DNA of 49,816 bases from Girardia tigrina (Eukaryota). The DNA lies in assembly GCA_001938485.1 (NCBI GenBank), contig MQRK01224516.1, positions 1 through 49,816 of the forward strand, written 5' to 3'. The notes under the pieces were generated by a model. It had not been told where the DNA came from, made no database searches, and saw only the letters and a program-made list of their open reading frames with translations. This document shows positions 26,642 to 26,739 of this stretch, piece by piece. The position numbers and the translations under genes were made by a program. Numbering within the stretch: position 1 is the first letter of the stretch; every line of letters starts with the position of its first letter.

Positions 26642-26739
26642 TGCAAGAGCGGGCGCAGCGATTTTGTGGCTGCGGCACGCCGGCGACGGGGAGCGAGCAT
26701 CCGGTCGGGGTGTCACATTTAAAATTTGCATCTTACATT
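26642..26739 (-). repeat. GC-rich conserved motif, copy 1 (homologous to 40561-40654)
   Basis: About 85% identical over the ~70 bp core, including TGCAAGAGCGGGCGCAGCG. Confidence 0.85.

Follow-up and report, generated by a model that had tools for sequence, protein, structure and literature searches.

The window, by which we mean the whole 49,816-nt stretch of Girardia tigrina DNA that was analysed, has a GC content of about 28% and carries two minus-strand copies of a GC-rich motif, at 26642-26739 and 40561-40654. The copies are identical in 80 of 98 alignment columns (82%; 85% of the shorter copy), close to the 85% given in a preliminary description made from the letters alone, and each is preceded by a different intronless minus-strand gene fragment, as that description also held and as the window ORFs, Pfam and comparison with parent exons bear out. 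A preliminary search of the genome returned 1538 and 1151 candidates, with 40 scored in each, and a 23-mer of the motif has 629 exact matches in the 1.43-Gb source genome against none for its reversed control, so the recurrence of the motif is not due to chance. Its copy number is at least 629, as counted from exact 23-mer matches only, and the genome-wide search that had been proposed finds captured LTR cargo and primer-binding site (PBS) with gag as the flanking sequences. Words of the motif also make up small shares of leaf-litter and sediment runs, which are not taken as evidence of habitat, and the pattern joining the motif to the PBS had no matches in metagenome contigs. Elsewhere in the window, 21866-26350 resembles an endogenous small-DNA-virus element, with minus-strand Rep/SF3-helicase-like ORFs (21866-22945), a plus-strand ORF bearing a parvovirus-type phospholipase A2 domain (PF08398; 22940-24064), further ORFs to 26062 and palindromic or G-rich ends near 26150-26350. 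At 488-1769 is what is left of a non-LTR retrotransposon, namely its 3' part, in which an ORF of the restriction-like endonuclease type was recognized by eye from the translation; remnants of Mariner-like and other DDE transposases with TIR pairs lie at 14400-14819, 28827-29976, 47627-48316 and 48524-48949, and ARAGORN found no tRNA in the window.

In the LTRs of a BEL/Pao retrotransposon, the motif forms the conserved 3' (U5) end, which lies here on the minus strand. The preliminary description had placed the two copies 170-270 bp inside a TA-flanked TIR-like element end, but in all 60 loci first fetched, some of them duplicates, similarity is lost sharply at the TG at 26636 (copy 1) or 40555 (copy 2), where the element ends on the minus strand in ...GCA(C/T)CA(T/C)CA. 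At two of these 60 loci a PBS comes next, and searches by pattern turned up 28 and 8 junctions of this kind elsewhere in the genome. The PBS matches 18 nt of a tRNA-Met(CAT) gene from the same genome with CCA added, which by its features is probably the initiator tRNA (iMet). Downstream of the PBS are encoded ubiquitin, DUF1759, a zinc knuckle, an aspartic protease, RT, Peptidase_A17 and integrase, and the order Gag(DUF1759)-zinc knuckle-protease-RT-RNase H/Peptidase_A17-integrase is present at two loci (L112, L114). PF05380 was found in all 32 homologues of the RT/RNase H region, and the element therefore belongs to BEL/Pao. A weak search found no relatives of the Gag N-terminal region among longer proteins. 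An LTR end was the very outcome that the preliminary description had named as speaking against its own proposal, and the PBS and BEL/Pao gag-pol downstream establish it; of the suggested capture or priming site, what holds is that the motif adjoins the tRNA-iMet PBS, while the motif itself is the LTR terminus.

Window copy 2 and 14 of 20 long loci have the opposite LTR end, TGTTT..GA with a 5-bp TSD, and complete LTRs measure 772-2791 bp. A polypurine tract (PPT) stands just before the LTR start at 90 places, against none for the control, and pol or 3' internal sequence lies upstream of this junction at 11 of 20 fetched loci, none of the 20 fetched loci having a readable LTR pair. The element is thus of the BEL/Pao kind in its TG...CA ends, 5-bp TSD, PBS, PPT and domain order. 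On one N-gapped scaffold (G000:C187690; L304/L305) a PBS and a PPT are 5.06 kb apart and the two LTR starts diverge after 26 nt, a divergence that may stem from a scaffolding error. Conservation at the left end of the LTR is lost after about nt 11 in 40 PPT junctions, the first 10 nt being fixed by the search pattern, and between this left end of about 11 nt and the right end of about 105 nt the LTR consists of 0.7-2.7 kb of pieces of host mRNA. AWTAAA occurs within the first 60 nt in 23 of 35 complete LTRs, compared with 90 of 315 later windows taken as background. Short tandem LTR-PBS duplications, or mini-elements with less than 600 nt between LTR ends, were observed at L099/L115, L116 and L200. 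At L128-L131 and L226-L228, many partial 3' halves of tRNA-iMet are fused to other sequence, one of them with an encoded CCA; these are apparently reverse-transcribed remnants of the primer.

In the window, the conserved U5 end of LTR copy 1 spans 26636-26740 (minus strand), with its terminal CA at 26636 and a boundary supported by the 60 loci and by the 28 and 8 pattern matches in which PBS and gag then follow, and it also encodes the last ~35 codons of the LTR frame. LTR copy 1 (26636-27885, minus strand) is truncated at the 5' side: beyond about 27885 it no longer matches complete solo LTRs, the remainder is absent from the window, and its left flank has no mate within the window. Its cargo, at 26740-27657 (minus strand), is the spliced 5' part of a host mRNA, comprising 5' UTR and N-terminal coding sequence, probably of a bHLH factor. 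The LTR reading frame (ORF0) starts from the captured host ATG and runs in the Gag register from 27502 to 26636 on the minus strand with a frameshift near 26884; sister copies (L062, L067, L071, L073, L076) have unbroken ORF0 frames of ~870 nt. LTR copy 2 is a complete solo LTR of 2791 bp with TG...CA ends (40555-43345, minus strand), flanked by a 5-bp TSD, GGTGT, at 40550-40554 (plus strand), with its mate at 43346-43350, as its flanks and ends show. Its conserved U5 end (40555-40656, minus strand), delimited by alignment of loci, contains a frameshift within the motif, and thus both window copies have a Gag-register frame broken by frameshifts. Copy 2 carries, all on the minus strand and all by Pfam, an N-terminal fragment of importin-beta (PF03810; 41320-41718), an RRM fragment (PF00076; 41955-42275) and, near its 5' end, a LIM-like fragment whose PF00412 match is below the curated cut-off (43130-43290); the parent of the importin fragment was not identified among the nine matched loci inspected. 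This LTR sits inside an unrelated TIR-bounded DNA element (40386-44538), recognized from an 88.5% inverted match between 40386-40446 and 44480-44538. The TIR that the preliminary description saw near copy 2 is 165 bp from the LTR and pairs with 44480-44538, and we therefore rejected this element as the carrier of the motif, because it is the one into which the LTR jumped. The left end of the same TIR element also occurs near another locus, L023.

The captured sequences are spliced host mRNA. When grouped by the 200 nt that precede the motif, 145 distinct copies form 42 clusters; copies whose sequence is too short in this stretch were left out. Host-type Pfam matches number 19 among 140 sense ORFs and none among 150 antisense ORFs (140 of 147 and 150 of 163 ORFs were covered, those excluded being repeats of tandem copies and two ORFs beyond the set limit), four of the 19 being below the curated cut-off; the domains include Rab, Mon2/BIG, sideroflexin, PTPA, Hsp70, AP sigma, MAP65, DCP1 and importin, among others. 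Parents were traced for three captures, all in the sense strand and with introns precisely removed. The PTPA capture, from which two GT-AG introns of ~60 bp and ~8.8 kb are precisely absent, extends from the 5' UTR to the middle of exon 3, where it stops at ~10 nt common to the element. The parent of copy 1 has five exons on two contigs (G000:C216819, C17394), and four introns have been lost, including one in the 5' UTR; a paralogous locus (L248) continues into an HLH domain. This capture starts right after an initiator-like TCATT in the parent and ends a few nt before a GT word in the motif, with ~5 nt of microhomology at the 3' junction; microhomology was read at two 3' junctions only. In three runs, abundant 2.0-2.2-kb contigs depart from the element at this same junction point. 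An AT-rich segment at LTR nt 50-310 likewise proved to be two spliced host exons. Cargo is present in solo LTRs with a TSD on either side, in 5' LTRs, where it precedes the PBS, and in 3' LTRs, where it follows the PPT. Two of the cargo proteins have 85 and 95 matches, and the best named hits of a cargo protein indicate that the host is a flatworm. The suggestion of a gene-capturing element family marked by the motif is thus borne out, in the form of pieces of spliced host mRNA in LTRs. One LTR (L077:8754-9815) carries a piece of the element's own integrase/DUF5641 in the Gag-register frame, which may reflect self-capture or a deletion joining pol to the 3' LTR. One capture, inherited by 16 of 22 loci, is a coding insert of ~690 nt at the left end of the LTR, and LTR nt ~17-36, comprising AATAAA and an A-run, are duplicated on both sides of it.

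Some lineages bear strand-biased substitutions. Over 878 nt aligned with its parent gene, copy 1 has 47 A-to-G changes, whereas T-to-C changes number 5 and G-to-A and C-to-T changes 8 each; 39 of the 47 A-to-G changes fall in the last three exon blocks, forming a cluster at 26753-27171 (minus strand) that is common to the whole subfamily. A 5' G precedes 2 of the 47 changed A residues and 65 of the 238 unchanged ones (p=2.6e-4). Seven other members of the subfamily carry the burst, with 42-53 changes, and seven sister copies have 7-19 changes with no strand bias. A second burst is present in 6 of 12 PTPA-bearing copies, which have 12 shared sites absent from the other six. Since strand-biased A-to-G change depleted after a 5' G is the signature of ADAR, the bursts are probably ADAR edits that reverse transcription made permanent, in lineages which went on to amplify. 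The rival explanation is an error bias of the RT.

What the preliminary description did not anticipate is that the gene fragments lie inside an LTR, are spliced host mRNA and stay in frame through the motif into ubiquitin-Gag. Captured genes, motif, PBS, a ubiquitin ending in LRLRGG and Gag follow one another in a single frame. Over the final 114 nt this Gag-register frame is free of stops in 116 of 140 copies, the corresponding figures for the other frames being 26 and 18. Upstream of the motif, 20 of 39 cargo clusters have it as their longest frame out of six (p=7e-7, with clusters that share modules and are not fully independent), and it extends a median of 147 nt beyond the motif compared with 33-72 nt for the others. 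It stays open past the PBS in 23 of 27 5' LTRs, and at L114 an Hsp70 fragment, U5, PBS and ubiquitin lie in one frame that spans a short N gap. Among 26 copies of the copy-1 family, multiples of 3 account for 11 of the 16 indels common to several insertions and for 5 of the 30 private ones (p=7e-4); the five indels that at least four copies have in common are without exception multiples of 3. The changes in the motif are distributed 277/176/273 over codon positions, counts that are non-independent and merely suggestive. Of 20 distinct copies, 17 have a Gag-proximal ubiquitin (PF00240) with a terminal GG, in one case with a stop just before it, and in the tandem di-ubiquitins (L104, L134, L137) the upstream unit is without GG in all three pairs, whereas the Gag-proximal unit keeps it. 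The LTR frame thus likely forms a disposable leader on Gag, with a predicted cut at the built-in ubiquitin.

Taken together, we consider it probable that the spliced host mRNA pieces that make up the LTR of this BEL/Pao element were acquired by template switching during strong-stop synthesis, and that they supply an in-frame leader that is likely translated and would be cut off by deubiquitinases at the ubiquitin. The following steps, reconstructed from sequence comparison, can be envisaged. Nearly the whole LTR would be U5, with a U3 of ~16 nt, an R around AATAAA and the A-run, and a U5 of 1-2.7 kb, a map of R and U3 that rests on the single capture event of the ~690-nt insert. An LTR that is nearly all U5 would be copied only once, as a long strong-stop DNA. 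During this synthesis the RT would exit the element at short microhomologies, copy a co-packaged mRNA toward its 5' end and return; the repeat of nt ~17-36 on both sides of the insert would have arisen because strong-stop DNA detoured onto another RNA before its transfer to R. A captured AUG would then stand upstream of gag, so that only in-frame captures would propagate well, and the frame bias of inherited indels may be explained in the same way, because a captured 5' UTR and AUG would block Gag unless in frame. Host deubiquitinases would cut after LRLRGG and release Gag from any leader, and the leader sequence would be free to drift because it is cleaved off. Conservation of the motif itself may be due to its holding the integrase end, to its pairing with the primer tRNA or with the PBS/leader, and to the need to stay free of stops. 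One consequence counts against the main reading: if transcription starts at the left end of the LTR, cargo stacked upstream would add uORFs.

The most serious alternative accepts the same element and the same capture, and holds that the LTR frame is not needed as protein: Gag would start at an AUG after the PBS, in-frame cargo would merely avoid nonsense-mediated decay or repression by uORFs, and the ubiquitin would serve Gag alone. In most 5' LTRs there are in-frame AUGs 13-36 codons past the LTR end, and therefore Gag need not start in the LTR. The amino acids of the leader drift, the shared A-to-G sites being distributed 9/13/8 over codon positions. In addition, the host Pfam matches are split 8:4:7 across the sense frames with no clear excess; the representatives are decayed and were chosen without regard to frame, and later frameshifts can explain the split, yet it gives no support to the frame reading. 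Against this alternative, avoidance of decay would still imply that ribosomes initiate at the captured AUG and read through, the frame is kept across both the PBS and the ubiquitin, and GG is kept beside Gag while it is lost from upstream tandem units. We therefore regard a Gag start after the PBS as unlikely, albeit deserving more weight than the explanations that follow.

The cargo might instead have been selected for its effect on the host or on silencing, as dominant-negative fragments, as stolen promoters or 5' UTRs, or as piRNA decoys against essential genes, the open frame being only a consequence. It does come from regulatory and housekeeping genes (Rab, PTPA, Hsp70, AP sigma, sideroflexin, MAP65), and words resembling E2F, YY1 and DRE sites are enriched in the 5' parts of 12, 15 and 34 of 35 LTRs, respectively, in comparison with mononucleotide shuffles, the LTRs not being independent. 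This enrichment in the 5' half hints that promoter function might be borrowed from captured 5' regions. The fragments are, however, truncated and joined to one another, they carry in-frame deletions and hypermutation that shows no codon bias, and many unrelated genes serve, which makes selection for particular host effects improbable as the primary explanation.

The preliminary description had also drawn attention to a splice-donor-like GT, and the idea can be extended to capture being driven by a functional splice donor or by a lariat end, for example through strong-stop DNA ending at the 5' end of a debranched intron. The GT(A/G)AGA words are indeed present; that of copy 1, a putative donor GTAAGA, lies at the inner edge of the conserved U5 (26731-26736, minus strand). 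GTRAR occurs at -112 to -88 in 34 of 40 clusters, which are not independent, compared with ~5% of upstream windows, the copy 1 junction is only a few nt before the GT, and LTRs of a second type contain a GT that is not homologous and stands in a different codon phase. On the other hand, many junctions lie tens of nt further upstream, as in PTPA, and parents are cut in mid-exon at microhomologies. No splice joint at the GT was found when contigs of six RNA-labelled runs were compared with two 5' LTR loci, although contigs cannot show absence. A joint of depth 15 with minus-strand GT..AG-like ends is not evidence for such splicing, as it starts after the PBS and involves three replaced letters. 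One contig bridges U5, PBS and gag, which is weak evidence of a transcript, the run being guessed to be RNA and possibly containing DNA. A splice donor that drives capture is accordingly a still more doubtful explanation than selection for host effects.

The motif had further been proposed to be a cis-acting structured RNA. The hairpins named for it are present in the sequence, with that of CGACC complete in copy 2 only, but the Rfam search that had been suggested gave no match in the window, and the suggested covariation analysis found no compensatory pairs: in 31 sequences no pair of the hairpin, which is 91% paired, changed on both sides. With fold z-scores of -0.9 and -2.3 for the two copies in addition, a stand-alone structured RNA was rejected. 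U5 can also form a 23-pair stem with the PBS/leader, in which 97% of cells are paired (z of -2.6 and -1.7 in two copies) and again no pair changed on both sides in the 31 sequences; the hairpin is an alternative fold of the same 5' strand. By inspection, 9 nt of U5 can pair with the 5' arm of the tRNA. Pack-TIR and Helitron classes were set aside as well, since the ends are those of an LTR, introns are lost from the cargo and the TIR is that of another element. A non-LTR structured RNA, or a gene-capturing DNA element of TIR or Helitron type, is hardly credible, because the GC-rich, hairpin-forming sequence and the TIR 165 bp from copy 2 are outweighed by TG...CA ends, a 5-bp TSD, PBS, PPT, gag-pol and intron loss, and by a TIR that pairs elsewhere and the empty Rfam result.

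Returning to in-frame capture within the LTR, a bolder formulation can be offered, tentatively and with rather less confidence than the reading as a whole: the element may have almost no LTR of its own, keeping only integrase ends, a poly(A) signal and the U5 core, and may, in strong-stop synthesis, draw on the 5' ends of host mRNAs to rebuild start codon, 5' UTR and promoter-proximal region time after time, with the ubiquitin cut site insulating Gag from what is acquired. If this is true, it would amount to a standing exon-shuffling machine that has spread host ORFs by the hundred in the form of solo LTRs, the ORFs being chimeric and in some cases ADAR-edited. The LTRs would also provide hundreds of dated natural records of the mRNAs that are co-packaged in retrotransposon particles, of the points at which RT switches template in strong-stop synthesis, and of ADAR editing becoming heritable. 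The arrangement suggests a general design, a variable leader followed by ubiquitin and Gag, that can be searched for elsewhere. For flatworms, a gene may have dozens of 5' fragments residing in LTRs, which may mislead gene annotation and RNAi or piRNA analyses.

In known cases of gene capture by LTR elements, the cargo lies between the LTRs and usually cripples the element, whereas here capture occurs inside the LTR, is recurrent and compatible with gag-pol, and leaves its cargo in every solo LTR. Ubiquitin insertions in pestivirus polyproteins act as cleavage signals for host proteases, and A-to-G hypermutation by ADAR occurs in retroviral genomes. The element resembles the former in using a captured ubiquitin as a predicted cut site and the latter in the probable fixation of edited RNA by reverse transcription, but here both are found in an endogenous invertebrate retrotransposon, whose edited lineages went on amplifying. 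In yeast Ty1, the initiating AUG lies inside the LTR. Ty1 has a 53-nt 5' UTR, priming signals in the GAG region and tRNA-iMet as primer, according to the part of PMC3592414 consulted, and is thus similar in that the Gag frame crosses the PBS and that extended pairing with the primer is possible; its LTR-encoded part is, however, short, fixed and part of Gag, with neither host cargo nor ubiquitin. The planarian giant gypsy elements Burro/GYPSM1 are likewise flatworm LTR elements with host-like polyprotein domains, including a Ubi2/SUMO-like motif, but they are gypsy elements of 30 kb with these domains internal and downstream of Gag, and the section on them in PMC6431247 describes no mosaic LTR. 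Cassandra TRIMs, as presented in the portion of PMC12486564 consulted, share host-derived sequence in both LTRs (a 5S-derived domain), a tRNA-iMet PBS and a 5-bp TSD, but represent one ancient non-coding acquisition by a non-autonomous element, in contrast to the dozens of recurrent protein-coding captures by an element with gag-pol described here.

The closest precedent for the proposed mechanism is LTR-mediated retroposition. It is established that LTR elements switch template at microsimilarities and copy mRNAs packaged with them (Tan et al. 2016, PMC5131818), and the sections of that study consulted include a mosquito BEL case and cite maize Bs1. The likeness extends to spliced partial mRNAs, short microhomologies, several parent genes and repeated mobilization. 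As those sections describe them, the retrocopies replace internal ORFs between the LTRs, whereas here gag-pol stays where it was and the cargo survives as solo LTRs under frame selection; because the cargo lies inside the LTR, the present element departs from the placement that defines LTR-mediated retroposition. We found no description of this architecture in the open-access literature, and the word "ubiquitin" is absent from the consulted part of a survey of mollusc BEL/Pao elements (PMC6238403). The element shares with BEL/Pao its TG...CA LTRs, 5-bp TSD, tRNA PBS, PPT, DUF1759 Gag, zinc knuckle, aspartic protease, RT, Peptidase_A17, integrase and DUF5641, and differs in an LTR interior that is a non-homologous mosaic of host mRNA, 0.7-2.7 kb long, and in a ubiquitin at the N-terminus of Gag, with a frame that begins in the LTR. 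The motif alone is an LTR end; what is new is the recurrent capture of host sequence within the LTR of its element, which itself is of the known BEL/Pao kind.
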